In this document: positions 3,600-55,509 of the stretch, in pieces
Layout of the letters: each line of letters opens with the position of its first letter
How positions within the stretch are numbered: the stretch's first letter is position 1
IMG/VR virus record: IMGVR_UViG_3300036771_000024
Span: 55,392-119,391 of that record
Reading direction: 5' to 3' (one strand)
Source: a virus
Lineage: Duplodnaviria > Heunggongvirae > Uroviricota > Caudoviricetes
DNA length: 64,000 nt
Position numbers and translations under genes: made by a program
Notes under the pieces: model-generated
Told to the model about the DNA's origin: nothing
Databases searched by the model: none
The model's input: the letters and a program-made list of their open reading frames with translations, nothing else

Positions 3600-4657
3600 G
3601 GGTTCTTGTTGTCCACCCGGGGCCGAACTTCTCGGTCGCTGACGTACACAACGGGTGGGTAGACGCATTGCAGGGGCTGGGCTGCGAGGTTGCCTCGTTC
3701 AACACAGACGACCGGATCCAGTTCTACGCGCATTCGCTGATAGACACCGGTGAGGTCGATGAGGAAGGCCACCCGCTGGTCCGCCGGGCGATGAGCAACG
3801 ATGACGCGTTCCGAGCTGGCATGCAGGGCCTGTCCCACGCGTGTTTCACGATGTGGCCGGACGTGGTGGTCTTCGTGTCGGGGTTCTTCGTGACCGCCGG
3901 TATCTTGCAGCTGCTCCAGTCGAGGCGGATGAAGGTGGTGCTGCTGGCCACCGAGTCCCCGTACCAGGAGAAGATGCAGCTGGAACGGGCGCAGTGCACC
4001 GACGTGACGCTGCTGAACGACCCGGTGAACATCGAGCAGTACCGGGACATGGGGATCGTCGCCGAGTACGCACCGCACGCCTACCGCCCGTCGGTCCACT
4101 ACCCGCACGGACCGGGGGACGTGTGGAAACCCGAGCTGGAAGCGGACCTGTCGTTCATAGGGACGGGGTTCAAGTCGCGGGTGGAGTTCTTCGAGCGGAT
4201 GAACCTGCGTGGCCTGGACGTGCTCCTGGGCGGCTGCTGGGTGGACGTACCGGAGGAATCGATCCTGAACCAGTACCTGGGTCACGGGCCCGACGTGTGC
4301 GTCGACAACACCGAGACCGCTGAGATCTACCGGCACGCGAAAGCTGGCATCAACTTCTACCGGCGTGAGTATGACGACGCTGATGACGACGCGGTCCAGC
4401 CGTACGCGATGGGTCCCCGTGAGGTGGAGATGGCCGCGTGCGGCCTGTTCTACCTTCGTGACCCCCGCCCCGAAGGCGACCAGCTACTTCCCATGCTTCC
4501 CACGTTCTCCGGCCCCGAGGATGCCGGTGAGCAGCTCCGCTGGTGGATCAGCCACGACAAGGAGCGGGAAGCAGCAGCCGCGGCAGCGCGGGAGGCAGTA
4601 TCTAACCGCACGTTCGATGAGAACGCGCGGCGGTTGCTGAAGCTGCTGGACTCATAA
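3596..4657 (+). CDS. GT-B fold glycosyltransferase (GT1/GT4-like)
   Basis: C-terminal half has nucleotide-sugar binding signature incl. E-x7-E-like PREVEMAACG and typical GT4 C-terminal helix; translationally coupled (ATGA) to dehydrogenase gene. Confidence 0.5.
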   Translation: MRVLVVHPGPNFSVADVHNGWVDALQGLGCEVASFNTDDRIQFYAHSLIDTGEVDEEGHPLVRRAMSNDDAFRAGMQGLSHACFTMWPDVVVFVSGFFVTAGILQLLQSRRMKVVLLATESPYQEKMQLERAQCTDVTLLNDPVNIEQYRDMGIVAEYAPHAYRPSVHYPHGPGDVWKPELEADLSFIGTGFKSRVEFFERMNLRGLDVLLGGCWVDVPEESILNQYLGHGPDVCVDNTETAEIYRHAKAGINFYRREYDDADDDAVQPYAMGPREVEMAACGLFYLRDPRPEGDQLLPMLPTFSGPEDAGEQLRWWISHDKEREAAAAAAREAVSNRTFDENARRLLKLLDS

Positions 4658-4752
4658 TTGAATAGTGTCACCGAGGCCGTAGCCACCTCACGAGGTGCGG
4701 ACGGAGCCGGTTCTTTCACAGATCCGTCCCGTAATAGTAAGGAGCACCTACT

Positions 4753-5187
4753 GTGAGTAGGATCCACGGCCGGAACGGGATCGCGTACATCGCGGTCCAG
4801 TCCGGTGCTGCGGCCTCGCCGATGGCATTTCTCACCGACTGGTCGATTAACTTCGTCGTGAACAAGGTCGACGTTACCGCGATGGGTGACCCCAACCTGA
4901 TCTGGGTCGCCGGTCTCCCTGACGCATCCGGTGACTTCTCCGGGTTTTACGACACCGCGACCGCGCAGACGTACGTCGCGGCTACTGACGGCCTGCCGCG
5001 TAACATGTACCTGTACCCGAGCACGCTGGGCCAGCAGGGTGCTAACCCTGGCCAGTACTTCTTCGGTACGATCCTCCCCGACTACAGCGTGACCGGTGGT
5101 GTCTCGGCCGCCGTGTCGCTGAAGTCGACATGGAACGCCGCCTCGCCTATTATCCGCTACCCGAACGTGGGTATTCCGGGCACCTAA
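4753..5187 (+). CDS. putative major tail (tube) protein
   Basis: 144-aa ORF with AAGGAG RBS located just upstream of chaperone/TMP genes; assignment by synteny only. Confidence 0.4.
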   Translation: MSRIHGRNGIAYIAVQSGAAASPMAFLTDWSINFVVNKVDVTAMGDPNLIWVAGLPDASGDFSGFYDTATAQTYVAATDGLPRNMYLYPSTLGQQGANPGQYFFGTILPDYSVTGGVSAAVSLKSTWNAASPIIRYPNVGIPGT

Positions 5188-5285
5188 TCTCATGGTGCTG
5201 GACAGCGGTGTGGGCCCGACGACGGCGGAGGTCACGTAACAGGCGGGCCTCACACCGGCAGTACCAGCATGAGGAGATGTGCTAA

Positions 5286-5852
5286 ATGGCAGATGACGTG
5301 CGCGCCGAAGTCGAGATCGCTGCGACCCAGGTGCAGGCGTCCACAGACCGGGAACTGTCCGGCGAGGTCATCAACCATGACAGGGTGGTGACTCTCGCCG
5401 GGCAGGACTTCCGGGTCGCGGAGAAGGTCGGGCTCATGCCGTTGCTGAAGTTCAGCCACGCGGCTGAGCTGCGCGCAAACGACTCCCGCGCGTATGTGGC
5501 GATGTACGAGATCCTCCGCGACGTGATCATGGAGGCCGAGGAGCCGTGCGGTGAATGCGCGGCCTGCAAGGAAGCCGGGGACGACCCGACAGCACGCGAC
5601 TGCATATACGCAGACGAAGGTGACTGGGGTAAGTTCCAGGAACACGCCGTCACCTGCAAATGCGAGGCGGAAGAACTATTCGACGTGGTAGAGCAGGCGA
5701 TCAAGGTGATCTCAGCCCGCCCTACCGGGTCGCCATCCAGCTCTGCGGATGGGTCGCGGCGCACTTCGCGGAACTCGACGGCAGGCAACTCCGCCAAACG
5801 GGGCGCGGCCTCGAAACCCTCACCCCGCGGCAGGCGTGCAACCTCGCGCTGA
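5286..5852 (+). CDS. tail assembly chaperone (G-like)
   Basis: VGLMPLLKFSHAAEL motif typical of actinophage tail assembly chaperones; protein-like sequence degrades after ~aa 145 (ARPTGSPSSS...) where overlapping -1 frame becomes protein-like. Confidence 0.5.
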   Translation: MADDVRAEVEIAATQVQASTDRELSGEVINHDRVVTLAGQDFRVAEKVGLMPLLKFSHAAELRANDSRAYVAMYEILRDVIMEAEEPCGECAACKEAGDDPTARDCIYADEGDWGKFQEHAVTCKCEAEELFDVVEQAIKVISARPTGSPSSSADGSRRTSRNSTAGNSAKRGAASKPSPRGRRATSR

Positions 5853-5998
5853 CGTGCATGACGGAAAGCATGGAAGAGGAGCAGCACGAGGAATTCATGG
5901 AGGAACTGTACGCCAGGGATTCGGCTGAGAACACAGCGAAGCAGCAGCTCCGCGAGCACATGGAAGCCGCTGGCATCCAGTGGGACGAGGAGATCTGA
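5660..5998 (+). CDS. tail assembly chaperone C-terminal extension reached by probable -1 programmed frameshift (G-T fusion)
   Basis: Overlaps 5286..5852 in -1 frame; its own N-terminal ~20 aa are junk-like while downstream (VAIQLCGWVAAHFAELDG...) is protein-like; shift expected ~5715-5735. Confidence 0.4.
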   Translation: MRGGRTIRRGRAGDQGDLSPPYRVAIQLCGWVAAHFAELDGRQLRQTGRGLETLTPRQACNLALTCMTESMEEEQHEEFMEELYARDSAENTAKQQLREHMEAAGIQWDEEI

Positions 5999-6447
5999 TG
6001 GCGGGTGTTGAGGTTATCAGGTTCCGGTTCAACGAGGCTGAGGTGCAGGCGTTCCTGAACGACCCGGACGGCCCGGTTGCGCACCTGATGCGCGAGCTGG
6101 GCCTGGAAGCGGAAGGTTTCGCCCGGGCTAAGGTCCGCAAGCGCGCGTCCCCGTCCCCGGGTAAGAGCGGCCGGCCGGGCACGTCCGCACCACCGGGCAG
6201 CACAGCAGCGTCGATCGATTCGGCGTTGCACGCGAACGGGTTCCGCATCCCGTGGGCCGAGGTGTCCGCGGACATGGTGGGCTTGTTCCTCGAAAAAGGC
6301 ACCAGGCCGCACCCCATCGACTCGTACGGGCCATGGTCGCTGTCGAACTACGGGACCGGGTATTTCGGGTATCACGTGAACCACCCGGGTACCCGGCCTT
6401 ATCCATTTCTGACGACTGCCCTGTGGGCTTTGCAGGGTCAGGTCTGA
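5998..6447 (+). CDS. hypothetical protein between chaperones and tape measure
   Basis: ATG at 5998 overlapping stop of frameshift ORF; 149 aa; no motif. Confidence 0.4.
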   Translation: MAGVEVIRFRFNEAEVQAFLNDPDGPVAHLMRELGLEAEGFARAKVRKRASPSPGKSGRPGTSAPPGSTAASIDSALHANGFRIPWAEVSADMVGLFLEKGTRPHPIDSYGPWSLSNYGTGYFGYHVNHPGTRPYPFLTTALWALQGQV

Positions 6448-6464
6448 GCTAGGGGAGTGATGCT

Positions 6465-9400
6465 GTGGCGCGTCGGCTAGGTGAGGCGTTCGTCTCCATC
6501 GAAGCCGACGCGTCTCTTTTCCGTCCCACGGCTATAGCCGGGATGAAGAAGGCGCTCGCCGGCGTGACCGGGAACATCAAGATCACCGCTGACATGGACC
6601 CGAAGAGGGCCGAGCAGGGGATCGCGGCGCTGAAGCTGCGGATGGAGGCGCTGTCGCAGATCCTGGCGAAGCTGCGCGCCAGCGTGGACACGAAGTCGGC
6701 TGAGGCGTCGGTCGTGAAGCTGCAAGCGGACCTGCACGGCCTCGCTAAGAGCGTCAGCAAGATCACGTTCCAGCCGGACACGCGGAAGCTGGACGCCGCC
6801 ATCGCCAAGGCGCAGACCGAGCTTCGCGGGCTCATGAAGGACCTGAGCAAGGTCACGCTCCAGGCGGACACCACGAAGCTGGACACGGCCATCGCCAAGA
6901 GCAAGGCCCTGCTCCGCTCGCTGGAACGGCAGGCGTCCGAGTTGCAGCTCGACGCGGATGTCACCAAGATCGACTCGAAGATAGCGAACCTGAATAAGGA
7001 AACCGCTGTCATCAACAAGGCCCTGGGGAAGATGAAGGCCGATGTTGACATCGACAAGGCACTGTACCGCCTGTACGCGATCGAAGCTGAGATCAAGCTG
7101 CTCAACTCCGACGCGAAGAAGATCGAGCTTATCGCGAAAACCAACGCGATCAACGTCCAGATCGCCGGAGTCCTGAAGCACATCGATGACCTGGGGAAGG
7201 AGAAGGCTGACCTCGCCGCGAACACCACGATCATCAAGGCGCAGATCGCTGATGTGCACGCGCGTATCGCGGCGCTCTCACAGGAGAAGATCGACCTCAC
7301 CGCGAATATCGACACGAGCGTCCTGCTGAACGCCGAGCAGAGGATGCTCGGCCTGGAAGCTGCCACGTCGAAGATGGCGGGGACCACGAAGGACGCCACG
7401 AAGGCGTCCGCGGGGCTCCAGGGAATATGGACGGGCGGCTGGCTCCGCGGTGCCATCCTGGGTGTCGGCATCTGGCACATCGCGCTTGACGGCCTGCTGG
7501 AAATCATCATCATCGTGACCGCCTCGCTGATCGCCCTGGCTGCGGGCGCGGCTGGCCTGGCCGAGTCCGCCAGGAACATCGCCACGCAGATGAACAGCGT
7601 GCGGACGGCATCATCAGCTCTCGGGCAGAACATCCAGCCGCTGACCGGCAAGCTGGACAACCTGATGAAGTCGATGGCATCCCGGTCGATCGAGATTTTC
7701 GGTGGCGGCCTGAACCTGATCAAGAACCAGGCAGGAGGGGTCCTGTCCCGGATCGAGCCGGTTGTCAGCCTGTTCGACACGTGGGTCGCGAAGATCGACA
7801 TATGGGCTGCGCACAACCGTGACTTCGGCGCGGCTATCAACTCGGGCCGCCAGTTCCTGGAGCAGCTCGGCAAGATCATCGGTATCCTGACGAACGCTAT
7901 CTCGAACCTGCTCCAGAAAGACCCGGGGATCGCGCATTTCCTCCTCGACTTCGTCCAGGGGGCGGTGCTCCTGCTGGACGCGTTCAGTAAGCTGCCGAGG
8001 CCGATCGTGGAGGCCACCCTGGCGATCCACGGGGCATACCTGTGGCTGAGGCTGCTCGTCGCGCTGCCGATCCTGGCGTTCGCGAAGTCGCTGGGGATCC
8101 TGTCAGCTAAGCAGCTCGAATCAGCTGGTACCGCGCTGAAATTCAGTAATGTCGTGAAGTTCCTGGCCACCAACCCGTTCGGGTGGGCGACGGTAGCCGC
8201 GATCACGGTCGGGCTGCTGGCCTGGCAGCTCACCCAGGCGACCGGTGCGGCTAAGAGCTTCATCGGCTCGCTGGAAACAGGGCTGGCTAACGCCAGTGCC
8301 AGTCAGGCGATCAGCCAGATCAGCATTGACATCGGGCTGCTCAACGCGCAGATCGACCGGGTCCCGGCTCGTGTCGGCAACCTGGAACTATCGGTTGTCG
8401 GTTTCGCGTCGAAGGCTGGTACTTCTTTCAACAATGTCAGCCACGACCTGAACAAGGGAGACATCAACGGCGCGCTGACCGACATTGCCCGCACCGCTTA
8501 CAACGCGGTGCGGGCTTTCTTCGGGTTCCAGTCCGTGGGCCCGCAGATCAAGCAGACCCAGAACGACGTGGGGAAATTCCGCGAGGAGATCGTCCACCTG
8601 TCTGCTGAGCAGACACGCCTGTTCCACACGACCGGGACGCTGGTCACGGGGCAGAACGACCTGCACCTCGGCACCTTGTCTGTCTCGCAGGCGTTCGCCC
8701 TGATGGACCTGGCGGGGGTGAAAGCATCCGACAGTATAGATGTGCAGTACCAGAAGGTCAAGAACCTCGTCACCGGGTACAACGCCCTGTCCATCCGCGG
8801 CGGTATCCTGAAGAACTCCGTCAACGCGATCACGTTCGCCGCGCTCCAGCAGCAGGAGAAAGTCGGGCAGCTCAACTCGGCGTGGGACACGTTCTTCCAG
8901 ACGGTCACCGGTGGCGCATCCGGGTTCCTCTCATTCGCGACGCAGACCATCGGCCTGTACTCCACGCTGACCACCAACGGTGTCAAGCTGGCGTCCAGCA
9001 ACGGGAAGGTCCACGCCAGCCTGTCGGGTCTCGCAGCCGGGGCTCAGGACACAACCATCTCCATGACGGGGCTGAACCTCGCGTCGATCAACGCCAGGCA
9101 GACGTTCCTCCAGTCCGCTGGCGCGGCCAACACGCAGATCGACAACCTGACCCTGCTGGCGAACGCAGCCGGGCTTGGCCAGAAGGGCACCGACCTGCTC
9201 ACCCGGGCGACGCAGGACATGGTGGCGTCGCTGCTGCCCGCGACCGGTAAGTCCCAGGAACTGACCGACGCGCTGTTCGTCCTGGCGCAGCGTGGCGGCT
9301 ACCAGGGTGCGAACAGTTTCAAGGCCCTGTCGCAGTGGGTGAGTAAAACCAAGAACCCCATGCAGGATCTGGATAAGATCACTTCCACGCTGACGACCGA

Positions 9401-11966
9401 CGCGTCGAACCTGACCGACGACGTGAAAAACCTGTCGGTCGCGCTGGGGCAGAACCTGAACGACGCGATGTCGCAGGCTATCCTCCAGGCCACCGGCGGT
9501 CAGCAGGCGTTCGATGATTTCGCCAACGCGATGCTGAACACCAGGACTAACAGCGCGGCGCAGCAGAAGGCCGCCCTGGAGCTAGGTAATCAGCTCCTCG
9601 CGCTGACGGGGAACACGAAGGATGCGCACAAGGAATTCGACGCGTTCGCCATCCAGATGGGAATCAGCCGCGAGGATGCCGACAAGCTGTGGAGTGAGAT
9701 AGCGGGCAAGCTCACCCCGACGCTGGCCGAGCAGGCGACCAAGACCCTGCCGAACCTGAAGAACGCGTTCACCGACTGGGCGAAGAACGGCCTGAACTTC
9801 GGCAAGACGAAAGCCCATGACCTGTGGAACGAGATCACCACCAAGCTGGGCCCGAAGCTGGACGGCCTGGGTAACCTGGCTGCCGGTCCCGTCAAGCAGA
9901 AGTTCATCGACTGGGCGATCCACGGCCTGGGCCTGACACGGCAGCAGGCGATCAACCTGTGGAAAGAAGTGGACACCCTCCAGCAGCACATCGACGCGCT
10001 GCACGGCAAGGCTGTTGTCGTGGCCATGCGGGGTGACGGCTCGTACGTGATCCGCGGTACCAACCTCCAGTCCGCACCGGGGACAGGCGGGCCGAACGCG
10101 ATCTCCCGTGGCGCAGCCGAAGGCTGGTACGTCTCCGGTGGCACCCCGGGCAAGGACAGCGTTGCGGCGATGCTGATGCCAGGCGAGCTGGTCGTCCCCA
10201 CGAACATGGTCAACGCCGGGGTAGTCGACCACCTCCGCGGCAAGCTACCCGGGTTCGCTGGTGGCGGTGTCGCAGGCACCACGCCTAACCTGCATAAGAA
10301 CCCGCAGTTCGTTGACGGCATGTACTCGACGTTCAACAAGACGATGACCGCTGCGATGGTCTCGGCGATGCACGCATCACTGCGGGCGTCGGAGATAGCA
10401 GCGCTCGCAGCGGCGAAGGCTGCGGCTGCGGCTGCGGCCAAAGCATCCGCGGGTGTCCCTGGCGCGCTAGGAGGCCCGACCTCAGCGTCCGCGTCGCAGG
10501 CGCAGTCTTATGCGAGCGGCCGGCTCGGTGCGTACGGGTGGAGTGCCGGGCAGATGAGGCCGCTGATCCTGCTGTGGAACCAGGAGTCAGGCTGGAACCG
10601 GTTCGCCCGCAACCCTGGCAGCGGCGCGTACGGAATCCCGCAGGCACTCCCGCCCGGGAAGATGGGCTCGGCAGCTAACCCGCCCACCTCATCAGCAGCA
10701 GCGCAGATCAACTGGGGCCTGGGTTACATCAGGTCCGTCTACGGTTCACCGGCCGGTGCGTGGGCACACGAAATTGCCCACAACTGGTACGCGAAGGGTG
10801 GTCTCGTTCCCGGTTATGCTACTGGCGGGCTGGCCTCGAACCAGGCTGGTGAGCGCGCTAAGTACTTCGGTCTGACACATTCGGTCGCGATGGACCTGGC
10901 GCACGCCAAGACCGGCTCTTACACGTCCGGTCACCGTAAGACAATCATCAACGAGCTGGGCACGCTGGCGAAACGGCAGAAAACCGAGCTGTCAGCCTAC
11001 GGTGCTGCTGCCCGTCTGTCTAACGCCGCTAACCTGGGGCACCTTGCAGCCGCAGCGCATGCCGAGCAGCGCACAGCCTCAGACCAGGCGCTCACCCACG
11101 TGCACCCCGGGTGGGCGAAGGACCTGCGCATGTACCTGGGGCGGCTGGCAGCTACTAAGCCCTCGGCCAGCGGTGGAGGCGGAGGCAGCGGCGGAGGTGG
11201 AGGCGGGGGTAGCAGCGGCGGGAGCGGACCGGGTTACCCGGCGTGGAACCCGCCGAAGGTAACAGGAAGCGGTGGTGTCGCCGGGCTGCAAGCCAAGCTG
11301 AAGGACGTGGAACACCACGAGGGCCTGGACTACCTGGGTCTGCGTCACGCGTTTTTCGCCGGGCCGAAGAAATACCTGGACAAGACCACGCTGAGCGAAC
11401 TGGAGACGCTCCGGCAGCGGCAGGCCGCGTCGCAGACCGTGTTCTCGCTGCTGAACCGCAGCGCTGCTAACGTGTCCGACGTTAACCTCGCCAAGCTGGC
11501 CACGGTAGTCAAGGCGGAGGCAACGACGGTGACAGACAAGGCGCTGAACAGGCTCCCCGGAGGGCACCCCGGGTGGGCTCACGGATTGTGGCACTGGCTG
11601 GAGCAGCTCGGCGGGTTCGGCAAGGCCGGGGTGGCACCCTTCCTGCCCGGCGTCACCCACACGTTCGGCGGGGATGTCGGTAACACGATCGCCGAGTTCC
11701 TATCCTCGGTGATCAGCCCGCTGGGCCTGGCAGACGGCGGCATGGTCAGGTCGTATGACAAGGGCGGGTGGATGCCACCGGGACTGTCCATGTCGTACAA
11801 CGGCACGGGCAGGCCCGAACCTGTCGGCTCCCCGTCTAACGTGGTTGTCACGTTGCAGATCGACGCGGGCAGCAGTAACGCCGACCAGTTCCTCGCGGCG
11901 ATGATCAAGAAGTACGTGAAGGTAAGCGGTGGAGGTAACGTGCAGAAGGCTTTCGGGGCGCACTGA
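6465..11966 (+). CDS. tape measure protein
   Basis: 1833 aa, long coiled-coil-like N-terminal region, TM segments (aa ~320-370), Gly-rich linker SGGGGGSGGGGGGGSSGGSG, embedded region ESGWNRFARNPGSGAYGIPQALP resembling peptidoglycan-hydrolase motifs seen in actinophage TMPs; GGAG RBS. Confidence 0.9.
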   Translation: MARRLGEAFVSIEADASLFRPTAIAGMKKALAGVTGNIKITADMDPKRAEQGIAALKLRMEALSQILAKLRASVDTKSAEASVVKLQADLHGLAKSVSKITFQPDTRKLDAAIAKAQTELRGLMKDLSKVTLQADTTKLDTAIAKSKALLRSLERQASELQLDADVTKIDSKIANLNKETAVINKALGKMKADVDIDKALYRLYAIEAEIKLLNSDAKKIELIAKTNAINVQIAGVLKHIDDLGKEKADLAANTTIIKAQIADVHARIAALSQEKIDLTANIDTSVLLNAEQRMLGLEAATSKMAGTTKDATKASAGLQGIWTGGWLRGAILGVGIWHIALDGLLEIIIIVTASLIALAAGAAGLAESARNIATQMNSVRTASSALGQNIQPLTGKLDNLMKSMASRSIEIFGGGLNLIKNQAGGVLSRIEPVVSLFDTWVAKIDIWAAHNRDFGAAINSGRQFLEQLGKIIGILTNAISNLLQKDPGIAHFLLDFVQGAVLLLDAFSKLPRPIVEATLAIHGAYLWLRLLVALPILAFAKSLGILSAKQLESAGTALKFSNVVKFLATNPFGWATVAAITVGLLAWQLTQATGAAKSFIGSLETGLANASASQAISQISIDIGLLNAQIDRVPARVGNLELSVVGFASKAGTSFNNVSHDLNKGDINGALTDIARTAYNAVRAFFGFQSVGPQIKQTQNDVGKFREEIVHLSAEQTRLFHTTGTLVTGQNDLHLGTLSVSQAFALMDLAGVKASDSIDVQYQKVKNLVTGYNALSIRGGILKNSVNAITFAALQQQEKVGQLNSAWDTFFQTVTGGASGFLSFATQTIGLYSTLTTNGVKLASSNGKVHASLSGLAAGAQDTTISMTGLNLASINARQTFLQSAGAANTQIDNLTLLANAAGLGQKGTDLLTRATQDMVASLLPATGKSQELTDALFVLAQRGGYQGANSFKALSQWVSKTKNPMQDLDKITSTLTTDASNLTDDVKNLSVALGQNLNDAMSQAILQATGGQQAFDDFANAMLNTRTNSAAQQKAALELGNQLLALTGNTKDAHKEFDAFAIQMGISREDADKLWSEIAGKLTPTLAEQATKTLPNLKNAFTDWAKNGLNFGKTKAHDLWNEITTKLGPKLDGLGNLAAGPVKQKFIDWAIHGLGLTRQQAINLWKEVDTLQQHIDALHGKAVVVAMRGDGSYVIRGTNLQSAPGTGGPNAISRGAAEGWYVSGGTPGKDSVAAMLMPGELVVPTNMVNAGVVDHLRGKLPGFAGGGVAGTTPNLHKNPQFVDGMYSTFNKTMTAAMVSAMHASLRASEIAALAAAKAAAAAAAKASAGVPGALGGPTSASASQAQSYASGRLGAYGWSAGQMRPLILLWNQESGWNRFARNPGSGAYGIPQALPPGKMGSAANPPTSSAAAQINWGLGYIRSVYGSPAGAWAHEIAHNWYAKGGLVPGYATGGLASNQAGERAKYFGLTHSVAMDLAHAKTGSYTSGHRKTIINELGTLAKRQKTELSAYGAAARLSNAANLGHLAAAAHAEQRTASDQALTHVHPGWAKDLRMYLGRLAATKPSASGGGGGSGGGGGGGSSGGSGPGYPAWNPPKVTGSGGVAGLQAKLKDVEHHEGLDYLGLRHAFFAGPKKYLDKTTLSELETLRQRQAASQTVFSLLNRSAANVSDVNLAKLATVVKAEATTVTDKALNRLPGGHPGWAHGLWHWLEQLGGFGKAGVAPFLPGVTHTFGGDVGNTIAEFLSSVISPLGLADGGMVRSYDKGGWMPPGLSMSYNGTGRPEPVGSPSNVVVTLQIDAGSSNADQFLAAMIKKYVKVSGGGNVQKAFGAH

Positions 11967-24965: not shown

Positions 24966-25248
24966 GGTTCCCGCGGACCACGTAGTGGCCGCAGGAAACA
25001 ACGGAAGACTTACGCGCCTTCCGCACGCACACTTCCTTCACGGTACTCATGAGTAGCATTATACCTTCACGTAAGGGTTGAAACGTGGACAGCAAGGAAC
25101 GGAAACTGCTCAGGAAAGTGAACAAGGCCGCATCGGCGCTCAGGAAAGCGCTCAGGACAGGCAAGACCCCCGCTGAATGCAACCGGCTCGCAGAGGAGCT
25201 AGCCAGGGCGCAGCGCGAGCTGGCGAACTACCAGCTGCTGAACCCGTG

Positions 25249-25935
25249 ATGATCCCCCCGCCGCACCTGATGGTGCGGGTCAGCCGCAACGACGACCCCC
25301 AGACGTGGATCGACACAGGCAAGCGCCTGGCCGTGAAAATGATGGACACGGCGGGCGGGTGGTCGCAGCGACCGGTCCGGGACATACTGGACTGGGGTTG
25401 CGGCCCTGGTCGTGTCTCGTCGCAGATCACCGAGAATTACCCGCCCGGCATCACGGTGTACGGGTGCGACGTGGACGCCGAGGCGATCGGATGGGCCGCT
25501 GAGCATGTTACCGGCCAGTACGCCGTGTCGTCCCTGTCACCACCCCTGCCGTACGAGGATCAGTCGTTTGATGCTGTGCTGGCAGCCTCTGTGTTCACGC
25601 ACCTGCCACGCAGGATGCAACGGGTATGGCTGAGAGAGCTGGCCAGGGTCCTGCGCCCTGGTGGCGTCCTGGTCGCCTCGGTGCACGGCCAGGCAGCAGC
25701 CGAGTCGTTCGGGGTGACGGACCTGGCAGGCATCCAGGACCACTACCTGGACGAGAGCCTCAACGGGATAGCACCGGACGGGTACTACCGGGCTGTGCTG
25801 CAAACAGAGCAATACACGCGCAGCGCATGGTCGGACCGGTTCGTGATCGTCGCATACGAAGAGGCAGCCCTGGACCTGCACGATATGGTGGTGCTGAGGC
25901 CACGGTGCGCCACCCCGGAGCCCGCTAAGCGCTAG
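25249..25935 (+). CDS. class I SAM-dependent methyltransferase
   Basis: Motif I ILDWGCGPGRV, acidic loop VYGCDVD, motif FDAVLAASVFTHL, LRPGGVLVAS. Confidence 0.65.
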   Translation: MIPPPHLMVRVSRNDDPQTWIDTGKRLAVKMMDTAGGWSQRPVRDILDWGCGPGRVSSQITENYPPGITVYGCDVDAEAIGWAAEHVTGQYAVSSLSPPLPYEDQSFDAVLAASVFTHLPRRMQRVWLRELARVLRPGGVLVASVHGQAAAESFGVTDLAGIQDHYLDESLNGIAPDGYYRAVLQTEQYTRSAWSDRFVIVAYEEAALDLHDMVVLRPRCATPEPAKR

Positions 25936-26014: not shown

Positions 26015-26335
26015 GTGACCCTCACCGACGCACAGATCAGGGAACGGGACTGTGACCGGTGCGCCCGCTGCGGCGGTGTCAAAGGCGGCCTGCACATTCA
26101 CCACCGGTGGATGCGCTCAGCAGGAACCGACGAGTCAGGCTGCAACCGGGTGACGCTGTGTTCGTACTGTCACAACTACGTCCACGCGCACCCTGGCTCG
26201 GCCATCGATGACGGGTGGCTCGTCGGACGGTACGGTGACCCGGCCGAGGTCGAGATCCAGCATGCGATGTGGCCCACGTGGCCCATCCTGCTGGAACCGG
26301 AGGGTGGCATCACCCCTGTCATAGCCGAAGAATAA
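26015..26335 (+). CDS. HNH endonuclease
   Basis: CxxC...LHIHH...CSYCHNYVH zinc/HNH motif. Confidence 0.6.
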   Translation: MTLTDAQIRERDCDRCARCGGVKGGLHIHHRWMRSAGTDESGCNRVTLCSYCHNYVHAHPGSAIDDGWLVGRYGDPAEVEIQHAMWPTWPILLEPEGGITPVIAEE

Positions 26336-26378
26336 TCCTGTTGGCGTAGCGCCCTGTCCTAGCGTAGTATTACCTGTT

Positions 26379-27155
26379 ATGGCTACATACCTGCACCAGC
26401 TCATCGCCGTGCAAAGAGGCGTGGACGAAGAGACCGCCAAGACGCTCGGTGCCGTGAAGCACCTGCTCGCAGTCGGTGGTGACCAGGACCCTCTGACCGG
26501 CCTGTCCAGGGTGTACGAAGCACGCTCTGATGACCCCGCAGAAGAGTTGCCCGCGCAGTCCCGCAAGGTGCAGATCACCGCAGCCGAGCTGACCGGCAAG
26601 GTGGCGTCTGCGCTGGACCGCCTGTTCAACCTCAAGTTCACCCGTGAAGAGGGGAACTGCAACGCCCGCGCGGACGTGGTAGTGGACGGTCACGTCATCC
26701 TGACGGGTGTCCCGGTCGGGTTCCTGATGTTCATGGAGGCGCAGGTCGGGCAGATCATCGGCCTGATCGACCAGATCCCCACGCTGAACCCCGCTGACGA
26801 CTGGTCTGACACCGCACCGGGCCTGCGTGAGGGCGTATGGGCGTCCGCACCACGAAAGACAGCTGTGCCCAAGCGCATGCCGCAGGTGCAGGTGCTGTCT
26901 CCCGCTCAGGTGATCGACGGGCAGAAGTTCGACCCGCAGGTCCGCCCCTACGAGACCGAGGTCACCGTGGGCTGGTGGACCACGGTCAAGTACTCGGGCC
27001 AGATGGACCCGAAGGTGCAGCAGGACATGCGCGCCCGCGCCGTCAAGGTGCAGGACGCGGTGCGTAAGGCACGCGAGGCAGCGAACCGGCTGGAAGTCAC
27101 CGACGTACAGGCCACGCCCCTGCTGGAGTACATCTTCGGTGATGTGGTAGCGTGA
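26379..27155 (+). CDS. hypothetical protein
   Basis: 258 aa, protein-like, no motif. Confidence 0.5.
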   Translation: MATYLHQLIAVQRGVDEETAKTLGAVKHLLAVGGDQDPLTGLSRVYEARSDDPAEELPAQSRKVQITAAELTGKVASALDRLFNLKFTREEGNCNARADVVVDGHVILTGVPVGFLMFMEAQVGQIIGLIDQIPTLNPADDWSDTAPGLREGVWASAPRKTAVPKRMPQVQVLSPAQVIDGQKFDPQVRPYETEVTVGWWTTVKYSGQMDPKVQQDMRARAVKVQDAVRKAREAANRLEVTDVQATPLLEYIFGDVVA

Positions 27156-27624
27156 CCCGTAGGGTGACAATTTCTGGTGGATTGTCTGCGGGTGTTCGTG
27201 GCCGGGGCTGACGATGTAACAGTCGTCACCCCGGCTGCGGGCGTAGAAGAGGCATACGACATCCTCGTAGACGGGGGTGTCGCACCCCAGAAAGCCGCTG
27301 ACCTGGCCGTGGGTTTCGCCCGGATCGGCCCGCCGGGGCCAGAGTGGGCGCGGAGCCACGAAGAAATGTACCCCGTGTTCCAGGCGCGGAAGTTCCTCCG
27401 CCTGCGGGCGAGCCTTACGTGAAAAAGAACTGTAGGAACAGGGGGCAGGGCCTGTACTGTGCCTGTTTCTGCCTGAAATGCTCAGCCTGCCACCATTGCA
27501 AACGACACTGGCGTGGCTGTCACGCAGGCTGCTCACCAGCGCCACGTGTCAGCGGGAAGATCAAAGGTAAATGGGTATAGTGCCTGCCCGTCCACCCGGA
27601 TGTGGCACCAGCCAGCCGTACGTA

Positions 27625-27668
27625 CCTGCGGAATCGAACCGCGCACACAGAGTCGAACTGTGCGGGCA
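27625..27668 (-). other. two tRNA T-arm-like fragments (GGTTCGATTCC, GTTCGACTC) on minus strand
   Basis: Plus-strand CGGAATCGAACCGCG and GAGTCGAACTGTGC; no complementary acceptor stem found. Confidence 0.25.
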
Positions 27669-27796
27669 GGCAGAATCTATGCTACGTTAGACGTAGAGCA
27701 CAGCTTCCTCGTCGTCATTGTCTTCATGGTCATCATCGTTGTTATGCTCCAGCTTCCTCATCATCACCGCACCTGCCAGGACTGTACCCGGTAGGC

Positions 27797-27831
27797 ACCG
27801 TAGGTCGCGGGTTCGACACCCGCCCCCGCCT
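27797..27831 (+). tRNA. tRNA 3'-half-like element: anticodon-stem 3' strand ACCGT, variable AGGTC, T-arm GCGGG-TTCGACA-CCCGC, acceptor 3' strand CCCCGCC, discriminator T
   Basis: Read directly; pairs perfectly with the 5'-half at 27921. Confidence 0.35.
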
Positions 27832-27920
27832 CGAAAGTAAAACCGCAGGACAGTTGCTACCGCGTTCCTGCGGGCCGGGCGCTGAAAATAAGACGCCAGG
27901 CTAGAGCGGTAGCGCACCAT

Positions 27921-27957
27921 GGCGGGGTAGCTCAGTGGCAGAGCGACGGTAGTCACA
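27921..27957 (+). tRNA. tRNA 5'-half-like element: acceptor GGCGGGG, TA, D-arm GCTC-AGTGGCA-GAGC, G, anticodon-stem 5' strand ACGGT
   Basis: Canonical tRNA 5' sequence; no matching 3' half downstream; complementary 3' half lies 89 nt UPSTREAM. Confidence 0.35.
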
Positions 27958-28010
27958 AGAACCCGGGGCGGGACACCGGGCAGGGATAGGGCGGCTTACA
28001 TGTCGTTAGT

Positions 28011-28071
28011 GGGGCAGGATGCCCCGCTCACCTTGGGAGTGAGATTGCAGGTTCGAGTCCTGTCAACGCTG
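28011..28071 (+). tRNA. tRNA-like element (D-arm GGGG-CAGGATG-CCCC, anticodon arm CTCAC-CTTGGGA-GTGAG with TGG anticodon, T-arm GCAGG-TTCGAGT-CCTGT) with poor acceptor pairing
   Basis: Arms read from sequence; acceptor stem only 4/7 pairs, variable loop 3 nt; possible degenerate/pseudo-tRNA. Confidence 0.2.
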
Positions 28072-28115
28072 TTACAGGCGTTGTGGCGTAAATGGTAAAC
28101 GCACACGACAATCAA

Positions 28116-28149
28116 GGGGGCCTAGCTCAGGGTTAGTAGCTAGGCCCCC
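28116..28149 (-). terminator. perfect 12-bp hairpin (GGGGGCCTAGCT-N10-AGCTAGGCCCCC); 5' arm mimics a tRNA acceptor+D-arm start; likely terminator of minus-strand operon
   Basis: Read from sequence; lies 200 nt downstream of minus-strand gene end at 28355. Confidence 0.4.
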
Positions 28150-28354
28150 GTCGTGCGTCCAGGTTCAGACAGGGTAGATGGTGAGCTTCACCCCCGTGCG
28201 TCCTTCGGCTGCTTCCATGGCGCGTGCTGCGGGGTGCAGGTGCCGGCCGCAGGCACGCTGCTGATCCACCCTGCGGTCCCCCACGGCGATCCACCACTGC
28301 GCATAGCAGGGGCACGGGTCACCGGTGCGGTCTTCGATGCTCTCGCACTTAGCC

Positions 28355-30780: not shown

Positions 30781-30804
30781 GCGGGTTCGACCCCCGCCCG
30801 CCGC
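30781..30804 (+). other. second tRNA 3'-end-like fragment (GCGGG-TTCGACC-CCCGC-CCGCCGC)
   Basis: Similar to fragment at 27807-27830; located in intergenic upstream of 30845 gene. Confidence 0.25.
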
Positions 30805-55033: not shown

Positions 55034-55509
55034 GGCGCTTCGTGACGACCGGGAACGGGTTCTTTACCGCCCGGAACCCAGTCCTCCACGCCACGCCGGA
55101 ACGCAGCGGTCTCAGCTGCCTGGATTCCCCGCTCCTGGTGGAGCTGGTCCAGCGTCATCCTGCGCTGCGCGACTGCGGGGCGAACCTTGCGGAGCTGGTT
55201 CCTGACTCGCCGCATGGCCTCGTGTTCCTGGCGTGCCGACCCGTCCTCGATCAGGACCCGCGCGGTGTGCTGGAGTGAATTCCCCAGGTTCACCAGGGCC
55301 CGGCCTATGGCCAGGTCCGTGGCGAGCACATCGTCGCGTACGTCTTTCGGTTCGCGTTTCGCCGAACCAGTCGCCTGGTCCTGGATGATCTGCCCGCCGA
55401 TGGTCTGCATGACCTCGGCGTGGGCGACGGTGGCATGCCGGTCGTTGATCACGAGCACGTTGACCATTAGTCTGTGCGGTGACCGGTGGATACGTTGTTT
55501 CTTCTTCAC
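55030..55509 (-). CDS. hypothetical protein
   Basis: 159 aa. Confidence 0.45.
   Translation of the reverse strand: MKKKQRIHRSPHRLMVNVLVINDRHATVAHAEVMQTIGGQIIQDQATGSAKREPKDVRDDVLATDLAIGRALVNLGNSLQHTARVLIEDGSARQEHEAMRRVRNQLRKVRPAVAQRRMTLDQLHQERGIQAAETAAFRRGVEDWVPGGKEPVPGRHEAP

Follow-up and report, generated by a model that had tools for sequence, protein, structure and literature searches.

A circularly permuted tRNA-like domain in a probable YrlA-type RNA encoded downstream of DUF7873 genes in phages and bacteria

The window analysed here, a stretch of 64,000 nucleotides from a Caudoviricetes genome (IMG/VR record IMGVR_UViG_3300036771_000024, positions 55,392 to 119,391), carries on its plus strand a gene (26379..27155) whose 258-aa product belongs to the DUF7873 family (Pfam PF25283, E=1.7e-58) and which has the GC3 pattern of a real gene. 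A 391-aa ORF on the minus strand (26370-27545) was considered as an integrase candidate and rejected, as it lacks any domain, its GC3 pattern is wrong and it overlaps the real DUF7873 gene. Downstream of DUF7873, on the same strand, lie a putative Y RNA-like non-coding RNA of the YrlA type, which we call RNA-B (27765..27995; delimited by our covariance model R1, by Rfam YrlA matches in relatives and by its stems), a second and divergent permuted tRNA-like module (28002..28109) and a GC-rich hairpin (28113..28152). No DNA similarity between the window and known phages was found, an exact look-up of the Lsr2-like protein returned no record, and the exact halves of RNA-B described below, with a spacer of 70-100 nt, had no match in IMG/VR. 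The exact DUF7873 protein occurs on two contigs; both are the same phage and therefore add no diversity. Searching IMG/VR with the single DUF7873 protein gave no match, whereas an alignment-based search succeeded.

At the centre of RNA-B are two segments that a sequence-only reading had described as perfectly complementary tRNA halves in permuted order, 89 nt apart. The 3' half (27797-27831) consists of the 3' strand of an anticodon (AC)-like stem, ACCGT (27797-27801), a variable loop, AGGTC (27802-27806), a T arm, GCGGG-TTCGACA-CCCGC (27807-27823), the acceptor 3' strand, CCCCGCC (27824-27830), and a discriminator T (U in the RNA) at 27831. The 5' half (27921-27950) begins with the acceptor 5' strand, GGCGGGG (27921-27927), and continues with TA, equivalent to U8A9 (27928-27929), a D arm, GCTC-AGTGGCA-GAGC (27930-27944), a G in the place of G26 (27945) and the AC-like stem 5' strand, ACGGT (27946-27950). 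All these elements lie on the plus strand and were read directly from the sequence, the extent of each half being set by this reading together with covariation. Reread at these coordinates, the halves are real and pair 7/7 in the acceptor and 5/5 in the AC-like stem. The loop that joins the acceptor strands (27831-27920) measures 90 nt, and the earlier figure is right within a base or two. An expanded acceptor-stem cap with hairpins of its own occupies 27832..27920; it carries an insert of about 88 nt and is the second longest in the family, in which cap lengths have a median of 8 nt (range 6-185 nt). The window copy reads UCGA at the discriminator and has no CCA after 27831.

The acceptor strands of six related phages differ in sequence (GGCGGGG/CCCCGCC, GGGGGCG/CGCCCCC, GGAGGGG/CCCCTCC, GGACGGG/CCCGTCC, GGCCCCG/CGGGGCC and GGAGCGG/CCGCTCC), yet are 7/7 complementary in every one, with a spacer that varies from 7 to 90 nt and is short or missing in four relatives. 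The AC-like stem and the T stem covary as well in the six phages, and RNAalifold supports the permuted domain. Among 93 distinct homologues, 97.9% of the cells are paired (99.7% in the acceptor helix), and 20 of the 21 pairs show compensatory double changes; slid controls reach at most 51% pairing. The G-U pairs fit the strand of the DUF7873 gene, on which every match also lies. This covariation is unlikely to be an alignment artefact, because an alignment-free detector finds the same arrangement. Since both pieces co-occur and covary in relatives, the halves are far beyond chance. ARAGORN and Rfam found no conventional intact tRNA that might have been mis-segmented: the sole ARAGORN call there is a tRNA-Pro(tgg) at 28001-28072, away from the halves, and the Rfam tRNA model reaches 27.6 bits (gathering score, 29) only by bridging a 96-nt insertion. 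The circularly permuted tRNA-like arrangement had thus been recognised correctly.

Three outer stems enclose this domain, namely CCGC/GCGG (27767-27770 / 27991-27994), CCTGCC/GGCAGG (27772-27777 / 27979-27984) and CCCGG/CCGGG (P3, 27787-27791 / 27963-27967), the last with compensatory changes in two relatives. The leader-trailer duplex of the window has a free energy of -33.8 kcal/mol and beats 95% of foreign trailers; across the family, leaders pair with their own trailers at a mean of -33.4 kcal/mol, compared with -24.5 for foreign ones. RNAalifold also proposed a hairpin within the leader (CCTGCC/GGTAGG), which we set aside, as homology with typical cassettes and the compensatory changes favour leader-trailer pairing. 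Single-sequence folding of the element in the window recovers neither the T arm nor the cloverleaf and gives weak z-scores (-1.8 and -1.5); in such GC-rich sequence it was uninformative. The comparative evidence shows a circularly permuted tRNA-like domain within the predicted RNA; where a tRNA has its anticodon loop, leader and trailer pair with each other in a long interrupted stem.

This architecture is that of YrlA, a bacterial Y RNA (RF02553; PMC4201824; PDB 6cu1, bioRxiv 10.1101/312249) that is also found in phages. From the 5' to the 3' stem strand, both RNAs have an AC-like strand, a variable loop, a T arm, a loop-capped acceptor, UA, a D arm and an AC-like strand. The near-invariant T- and D-arm sequences of YrlA (GCGGGuUCGAnnCCCGC; GUAGCUCAnnnGGnAGAGC) are represented in the window by GCGGGTTCGACACCCGC and GTAGCTCAGTGGCAGAGC, both of which align to the Rfam YrlA consensus. 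The window RNA-B scores 107.4 bits with R1, a value that is high by construction because R1 was built from six sequences with the window among them. The Rfam YrlA model aligns to relatives over its positions 1-114 (46.3 bits, E=3e-7, in L006; 40.0 in L010; 35.8 in L004; 33.0 in L003) and scores 15.9 bits in the window, all below its gathering score of 69, at which it has no match in 18 phage and 20 bacterial loci. This cut-off is strict, because Y-like RNAs that adjoin a TROVE (Ro60/Rsr) gene in one phage, L169, also fall below it. The family further differs from YrlA in its complete 7-bp acceptor stem, after which NCCA is frequent. We conclude that the halves are two sides of one YrlA-type non-coding RNA on the plus strand, and give this reading a probability of roughly 0.8.

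Conservation among relatives starts at a putative extended -10-like promoter element, TGCTACGTT (TGNTANNNT), at 27680..27688 on the plus strand. In nine relatives, TAC[AG]NT is located 6-9 nt upstream of a conserved GAGC(A/G)CAGC; no -35 element was seen in the window, and a consensus promoter scan found nothing there. Transcription would start near 27696. The C/U-rich 5' segment of the putative transcript (27696..27764, plus strand) shows homology with the 3' stem and the linker of RNA-A, the first RNA of typical cassettes, of which the tRNA-like domain is missing here; its GCTCCAG..CTCATCATCACCGC resembles the linker CTCAGAYTCTYGCTCCAGNCTCAGCATTGCCGC conserved in four other loci. Small reading frames in this region were rejected as genes: a minus-strand mini-ORF (MMRKLE...) over the segment is not kept in either of two relatives (L094 and L096), and outgroups conserve neither a minus-strand ORF of 77-89 aa (27687-27956) nor an acidic mini-ORF of 25 aa.

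The module downstream of RNA-B (R1, 22.9 bits, E=0.004) is closed by a helix, GTCGT/ACGAC (28002-28006 / 28105-28109), and contains, all on the plus strand, a hairpin (28011-28025), an anticodon-arm-like hairpin, CTCAC-CTTGGGA-GTGAG (28027-28043), a T arm (28047-28063), a capped helix, CAACGC/GCGTTG (28064-28069 / 28078-28083), followed by UG, and a D arm, GCGT-AAATGGTAA-ACGC (28086-28102). The T stem is 100% paired in relatives and the capped helix 95.7%, with covariation in 4 of its 6 pairs; partial Rfam YrlA matches occur at the same site in three relatives. The ARAGORN tRNA-Pro(tgg) falls within this module. The degenerate Pro(TGG)-like tRNA suspected earlier thus corresponds to an actual ARAGORN call, but its "acceptor" shows no compensation in L006 and it is better explained by the divergent permuted module. 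The 12-bp palindrome beyond it (28116-28127 / 28138-28149, within 28113..28152) keeps its position and pairing with a changed sequence in five relatives and in three typical cassettes. It is a conserved, covarying hairpin, but the tRNA likeness first read into it (TAGCTCAG) must be coincidental, because relatives lack it. The hairpin is probably a terminator that serves the RNA transcript as well as the convergent genes on the minus strand; a consensus terminator scan misses it because it has no U tract.

We found Y-like RNAs downstream of DUF7873, on the same strand, in phages and in bacterial chromosomes of several phyla. R1 matches lie 80-330 nt downstream of the gene at every one of the 80 bacterial loci, as they do at most loci from phages and metagenomes, and a strict alignment-free detector is positive at 109 of 159 loci, with 149 detections on the plus strand and 15 on the minus strand. 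The association also holds in reverse, DUF7873 being upstream of 8 of 11 permuted matches, versus 1 of 109 tandem-tRNA matches. The closest protein relative (L013, 94% identity) has no detected RNA in the 2.8 kb after the gene. The cassettes hold one to three Y-like RNAs; YrlA and YrlB likewise form two tandem RNAs per locus, comparable to the two modules of the window. The DUF7873 family comprises about 2,200 clusters at 50% identity, and the cassette, in which the RNA adjoins DUF7873 instead of Ro60, its usual partner, recurs across hundreds of bacterial and phage genomes. Its carriers belong to Actinomycetota, Myxococcota, Chloroflexota, Deinococcota and Acidobacteriota and include many phages of these phyla. 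No third gene is consistently linked to it in a census of 135 neighbouring ORFs from about 70 phage loci. At the six bacterial loci inspected its neighbours are unrelated housekeeping genes, which argues that the DUF7873 gene and the RNAs form a self-contained cassette. We found no paper that mentions DUF7873 by name, and no description of such a protein-RNA cassette in the literature.

Because of this two-way genetic linkage, DUF7873, rather than Ro60/Rsr, is the likeliest protein partner of the RNA, and we would give about even odds that it binds it, as predicted from the genomic data. The RNA would be transcribed from its own extended -10 promoter, from about 27696 onward, would end at the hairpin at 28113-28152, and would fold into a tRNA-like L shape recognised by tRNA-handling enzymes. 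The family has features of RNase P substrates (G+1 in 89 of 93 members, U-1 in 72 and a discriminator U in 72), and CCA directly follows the discriminator in 52 of the 93, although it is uncommon in RNA-B of bacterial cassettes. In Mycobacterium smegmatis, a YrlA with a 7-bp acceptor stem and an actinobacterial context, as in the window, serves as an RNase P substrate in vitro and, in vivo, undergoes cleavage, trimming and CCA tailing to become a two-piece tRNA mimic (PMC4201824); it differs in having rsr as its neighbouring gene and Rsr as a bound protein, and for the window RNA processing is putative only. By analogy, a candidate RNase P cleavage site lies 5' of G27921, and the cap, 90 nt long here, may be trimmed and CCA added. 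The product would be a two-piece, base-paired tRNA mimic resembling a tRNA nicked in the anticodon loop. The precursor envisaged in the sequence-only reading is thus plausible, by the M. smegmatis precedent (PMC4201824), in the form of one that yields two base-paired pieces. The stem module would bind a protein and, in the weakest step, the particle would probably be involved, during infection, in the damage, repair or surveillance of tRNAs; one might speculate that it senses, repairs or counterfeits damaged tRNA in phage-host conflicts. That DUF7873 and its downstream Y-like RNAs constitute such a Ro60-independent ribonucleoprotein cassette, with an RNase P-cut, CCA-ended mimic and a damaged-tRNA role in conflict, is a tentative proposal, to which we attach somewhat less than even odds.

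Bacterial Y RNAs have so far been searched for and defined only beside Ro60; the search of PMC4201824 covered only genomes that encode a TROVE protein, and there only the 4 kb around its gene. The present data link the same RNA architecture, in both directions, with another protein, for which no known fold was matched, in hundreds of genomes without Ro60 at the locus. The linkage to DUF7873 offers a second, independent handle on the purpose of the tRNA mimic, and a defined protein-RNA pair that is open to study in culture, for example in Gordonia phages or Streptomyces.

The RNA could instead be a classical Ro60/Rsr-dependent YrlA that borrows the Rsr of the host, DUF7873 being a frequent neighbour and not a partner. 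The architecture and the T and D arms would fit, and in L169 the DUF7873 cassette is 1 kb from a TROVE gene that is preceded by three further R1 matches. Genes for RNA repair (RtcB, LigT-like, Thg1 and Band_7) are also sporadically nearby. However, L169 accounts for the only TROVE gene among the 135 neighbouring phage ORFs, and none was found among the 40 ORFs scanned in the window or at the six bacterial loci. Ro60 is present in about 5% of bacterial genomes (PMC4201824), as against the 80 of 80 loci with the RNA after DUF7873. The evidence from the motif GNCGAAN0-1G, a proposed Rsr/Ro60 contact, is divided: typical family members have the near motif GAUCGA(A/C)C in their 5' strand, and GNCGA occurs in 42 of 93 family leaders, but the exact motif occurs in 8 of 93 and has no match in the window (27690-27800), whose lineage lacks it. 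On balance, dependence on Rsr appears unlikely.

A conflict module would account for the data differently, with the tRNA-like RNAs serving as decoys or antitoxins against a tRNA-directed activity, in the manner of type III toxin-antitoxin systems, rather than as a scaffold. The tRNA-directed activity could be DUF7873 or an anticodon nuclease of the host. The cassette is self-contained and recurs in variable chromosomal neighbourhoods and in phages, as is often seen among mobile conflict systems. Its phage copies occur within or next to tRNA arrays, and a capped, permuted tRNA mimics an anticodon-nicked tRNA and is bound by RtcR (PMC10159003). The RtcR ligand, an engineered "nicked" circularly permuted tRNA-Leu (Chen and Wolin 2023, PMC10159003), has the same topology as the window RNA, with a loop-closed acceptor and ends in the anticodon region; it is artificial, its ends are in a true anticodon loop, and its relevance to the phage RNA is that of a lead only. 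Against such a module, the predicted structure of DUF7873, although confident (pLDDT 91), matches no known fold, those of nucleases and toxins included, no PADLOC defence model matches the protein, and the RNAs follow the gene and, unlike known type III antitoxins, do not consist of short tandem repeats. We regard this explanation as having a rather slim chance.

It is very improbable that the halves are a genuine permuted or split tRNA gene, as the sequence-only reading had suggested, with a precursor circularised or joined in trans to give a decoding tRNA. The 7-bp acceptor, the G+1, the U-1 and the frequent NCCA are tRNA-like, and, when joined artificially at any of the junctions tried, the halves pass in ARAGORN as a 73-nt cloverleaf. 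Position 33 is nevertheless a G at each of these junctions, not the U33 of a decoding tRNA, and no canonical anticodon loop can be made. The flanks of the 5-bp stem show no conservation as a loop and form helices between leader and trailer instead. The same fold, moreover, recurs twice per cassette. In the permuted tRNA genes of Cyanidioschyzon merolae and the split tRNAs of Nanoarchaeum, the 3' half likewise precedes, or is separate from, the 5' half, and the acceptors are complementary. Their decoding tRNAs are obtained through a bulge-helix-bulge motif and an archaeal or eukaryal splicing endonuclease. The window element is devoid of an anticodon loop, no bulge-helix-bulge motif was seen in it, and bacteria and their phages are not known to have the splicing endonuclease that acts on permuted tRNAs in Cyanidioschyzon.

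Scars of att sites, or decayed and functionless phage tRNA genes, had also been suggested. The element does lie mid-genome between convergent gene blocks, a frequent attP site in temperate actinophages, and the other tRNA-like fragments pointed out in the window do exist: those at 27625-27668 are two minus-strand hairpins with T-loop-like loops inside a 9-bp stem, conserved in no relative examined, and that at 30781-30804 is a lone T arm with an acceptor 3' strand. Both ideas are scarcely credible, because compensatory substitutions keep the pairing in the 93 distinct sequences, no integrase domain was found in the ORFs flanking the element, and the same arrangement occurs in lytic phages and in chromosomes beside unrelated genes.

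A two-piece (circularly permuted) tmRNA gene (RF04321; alpha-proteobacteria, some beta-proteobacteria and cyanobacteria), which shares the order of elements, its T arm and 3' acceptor strand being encoded ahead of the 5' acceptor strand, and loses its intervening segment from the precursor, has a practically negligible probability, as its Rfam model (tmRNA_permuted) scores a weak 13.1 bits (gathering score, 47), ARAGORN calls no tmRNA, the 3:70 pair is C:G and not the G3:U70 needed for alanine charging, and the element has a full D arm and AC-like stem and neither pseudoknots nor, as far as was seen downstream, a tag reading frame.

The default thresholds of Rfam miss the DUF7873-linked RNAs, which are miscalled "tRNA-Pro" or small hypothetical proteins, as in gene 151 of phage GodonK.

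The two tRNA halves that a sequence-only reading had described as complementary and encoded in reversed order are present as described. On the plus strand, the 3' half (27797-27831) reads ACCGT / AGGTC / GCGGG-TTCGACA-CCCGC / CCCCGCC / T and is followed, after a 90-nt gap, by the 5' half (27921-27950), GGCGGGG / TA / GCTC-AGTGGCA-GAGC / G / ACGGT. Read directly, the halves are complementary at all 7 acceptor positions and all 5 positions of the anticodon-like stem. The test proposed with that claim, covariation in related genomes, gave a positive result. Homologues of the DUF7873 protein led to related phage contigs that share the gene order and keep the region, with the spacer between the halves down to a 7-nt loop in two of them (L003 and L009). 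The acceptor strands of six phages (GGCGGGG/CCCCGCC, GGGGGCG/CGCCCCC, GGAGGGG/CCCCTCC, GGACGGG/CCCGTCC, GGCCCCG/CGGGGCC and GGAGCGG/CCGCTCC) differ in sequence and are perfectly complementary in each; covariation extends to the 5-bp stem and the T stem. Thus, the upstream 3' half and the downstream 5' half together form the acceptor stem, which is capped by a loop whose length varies. Over the whole window, Rfam at gathering thresholds gave no match, and a permissive search gave a sub-threshold tRNA spanning a 96-nt insertion (27.6 bits) and weak matches to YrlA (15.9 bits, 27788-27866) and permuted tmRNA (13.1 bits). When the halves were joined artificially, ARAGORN accepted a 73-nt tRNA at every junction, with G at position 33 in every possible loop.

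A covariance model, R1, built on the tRNA-like core only, was searched against 166 loci from metagenomes and IMG/VR, fetched through the DUF7873 protein alignment, and 80 loci from bacterial genomes. In the alignment of the 96 best matches (93 distinct sequences), 97.9% of cells are paired, with compensatory changes at 20 of the 21 pairs and 99.7% pairing in the acceptor helix; with partners slid 1-3 columns as a control, at most 51% pair. A detector that needs no alignment and looks for a T arm, 7/7 complementary strands and a D arm recovered both window modules and, across the loci, made 149 plus-strand detections versus 15 on the minus strand. Cap lengths in the family run from 6 to 185 nt with a median of 8; at 90 nt, the cap in the window is the second longest. 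Family members carry G+1 (89/93), U-1 (72/93), a discriminator U (72/93) and an immediately following CCA (52/93), all features of an RNase P substrate; CCA is rarer in bacterial cassettes, and the window copy has UCGA at the discriminator position, without CCA.

The order of elements is that of the Rfam model of YrlA, a tRNA-mimicking bacterial Y RNA. This model matches relatives over its full length (L006, 46.3 bits, E=3e-7; L010, 40.0; L004, 35.8; L003, 33.0), all below the 69-bit cut-off, and the window copy scores low only because of its 88-nt insert. YrlA of Mycobacterium smegmatis has a 7-bp acceptor stem and is cleaved by RNase P, then trimmed and CCA-tailed (PMC4201824; 10.1101/312249), whereas for the window RNA we infer RNase P processing, along with expression, RNA ends, protein partner and biological role. 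Leader and trailer add three stems, CCCGG 27787-27791 / CCGGG 27963-27967 (compensated in L003 and L006), CCTGCC 27772-27777 / GGCAGG 27979-27984 and CCGC 27767-27770 / GCGG 27991-27994; over 90 sequences, the mean duplex energy is -33.4 kcal/mol with the own partner versus -24.5 with foreign ones. Typical members hold, within an internal loop, a conserved GAUCGA(A/C)C on the 5' strand, near to but not identical with the proposed Rsr motif of YrlA, GNCGAAN0-1G (exact in 8 of the 93), and CUUAAACG on the 3' strand; neither sequence is present in the window lineage. We conclude that the finding is real and functional, with an architecture already known as that of a YrlA-type tRNA mimic. As far as checked, what is new is a cassette linked to DUF7873 and independent of Ro60, the absence by loss of the Rsr motif from the window lineage, the 7-bp/NCCA acceptor, the large insert in the cap and the extra third module.

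In all 80 bacterial loci (among them Streptomyces, Actinoplanes, Nocardia, Myxococcus, Chloroflexota, Deinococcales and Blastocatellia), R1 matches lie 80-330 nt downstream of the DUF7873 gene on the same strand, and this arrangement holds in most phage loci. The neighbours in bacteria are unrelated genes (sugar transporter, LytTR, SpoIIE, GntR, peptidase). In a reverse test with a T-arm...TCCA...TAGCTCA pattern, IMG/VR gave 120 matches; 11 had complementary acceptor strands, 8 of them with DUF7873 200-912 nt upstream, whereas the gene was upstream of just one of the 109 tandem-tRNA matches. A survey of 135 ORFs neighbouring the cassette in phage loci showed no consistently linked third gene; TROVE, the Ro60 domain, occurs there once and RtcB, Thg1, LigT-like and Band_7 sporadically. 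The closest relative by DUF7873 protein (L013:3175-6798, Ga0137366_10012092; 94% identity) shows no Y-like RNA in the 2.8 kb downstream; its similarity ends at window position 27256, and the RNA was either lost or, as apparently in L019, pushed by an insertion past the end of the contig. DUF7873 is gene 152 of Gordonia phage GodonK (MK620899, L173), the cassette lying within a tRNA array; gene 151 (L173:4006-4134), annotated as a hypothetical protein of 42 aa and placed on the opposite strand where it overlaps the second Y-like RNA after gene 152, is probably an annotation error. The DUF7873 and TROVE systems adjoin in one phage (L169, IMGVR_UViG_3300026078_000021, 4001-8295). Beside the DUF7873 pair (4805-4901, 4951-5054), three Y-like R1 matches (6110-6213, 6310-6412, 6493-6554) directly precede the TROVE gene (6634-8295), which shows that the two RNA sets are related but separate; these matches also serve as a positive control for R1. 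Clustered at 50% identity, the DUF7873 family falls into about 2,200 groups; its structure model is confident (pLDDT 91.2), model and sequence searches found no matching fold or family, and the literature searched yielded no mention of it.

The genome is phage-like (GC about 63%), with a tape-measure gene (6465-11966), an Lsr2-like gene, a Cas4-type exonuclease and a GH25 lysin; the same phage is present in two public sequencing runs, and at the DNA level the window resembles no deposited phage. The 40 window ORFs scanned include neither an integrase nor a TROVE/Ro60 domain. DUF7873 (26379-27155, Pfam E=1.7e-58) ends the rightward genes and leftward genes begin at 28165, flanking the RNA region; 27156-28164 is non-coding by GC3 analysis except for one small ORF. 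A small conserved ORF (27177-27422, 76-81 aa) is interposed between DUF7873 and the RNAs in the window lineage; in typical cassettes RNA-A, the first Y-like RNA, begins about 80 nt past the DUF7873 stop codon. Shortly upstream lie a 106-aa HNH/DUF6300-like ORF (26015-26335), found there in all close relatives, and a SAM methyltransferase (25177-25935; PHROG 'tRNA methyltransferase', E=9e-10), which is downstream in L006, on the opposite strand in L004, or missing.

In a typical cassette, RNA-A and RNA-B stand in tandem, accompanied by a terminator hairpin. In the window lineage, RNA-B is the permuted pair; a C/U-rich segment (27696-27764), homologous to the 3' stem and linker of RNA-A, comes after a conserved TGNTANNNT element (27680-27688). 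In a further module (28002-28109), the T arm is followed by a capped 6-bp helix that covaries (95.7% paired, double changes at 4 of 6 pairs), then UG and a D arm. What had been taken for a degenerate Pro(TGG)-like tRNA does draw ARAGORN's sole call in the region, 'tRNA-Pro(tgg)' at 28001-28072, because of an anticodon-arm-like hairpin (CTCAC-CTTGGGA-GTGAG) in this module's variable region, but it is part of the module, and the supposed acceptor stem is uncompensated in L006. The palindrome at 28116-28149 is a hairpin, conserved and covarying in relatives and probably a shared terminator, but the TAGCTCAG motif said to mimic a tRNA is not conserved. The two minus-strand T-arm-like pieces (27625-27668) exist as hairpins, CACAG-TTCGACT-CTGTG and GCGG-TTCGATT-CCGC, two of three surrounded by a 9-bp stem, GCCTGCCCG / CGGGCAGGC (27583-27672); the stretch 27315-27692 was found in no relative fetched. 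The 3'-end-like fragment at 30781-30804 indeed holds a lone T arm and acceptor 3' strand (GCGGG-TTCGACC-CCCGC-CCGCCGC), and no 5' partner follows it; 22/22 bases are identical with RNA-B of the Streptomyces beijiangensis cassette (L227:3961-3982), and L003 lacks the equivalent intergenic gap. In several phages, a tRNA-like element directly follows RNA-B (L094:5313-5379, L096:3692-3757, L124:5086-5150, L134:5092-5158), matching only Rfam tRNA positions 3/4 to 67/68, with an acceptor stem of about 4 bp and differing anticodon loops (GUG, UGU, GUA, GCG).
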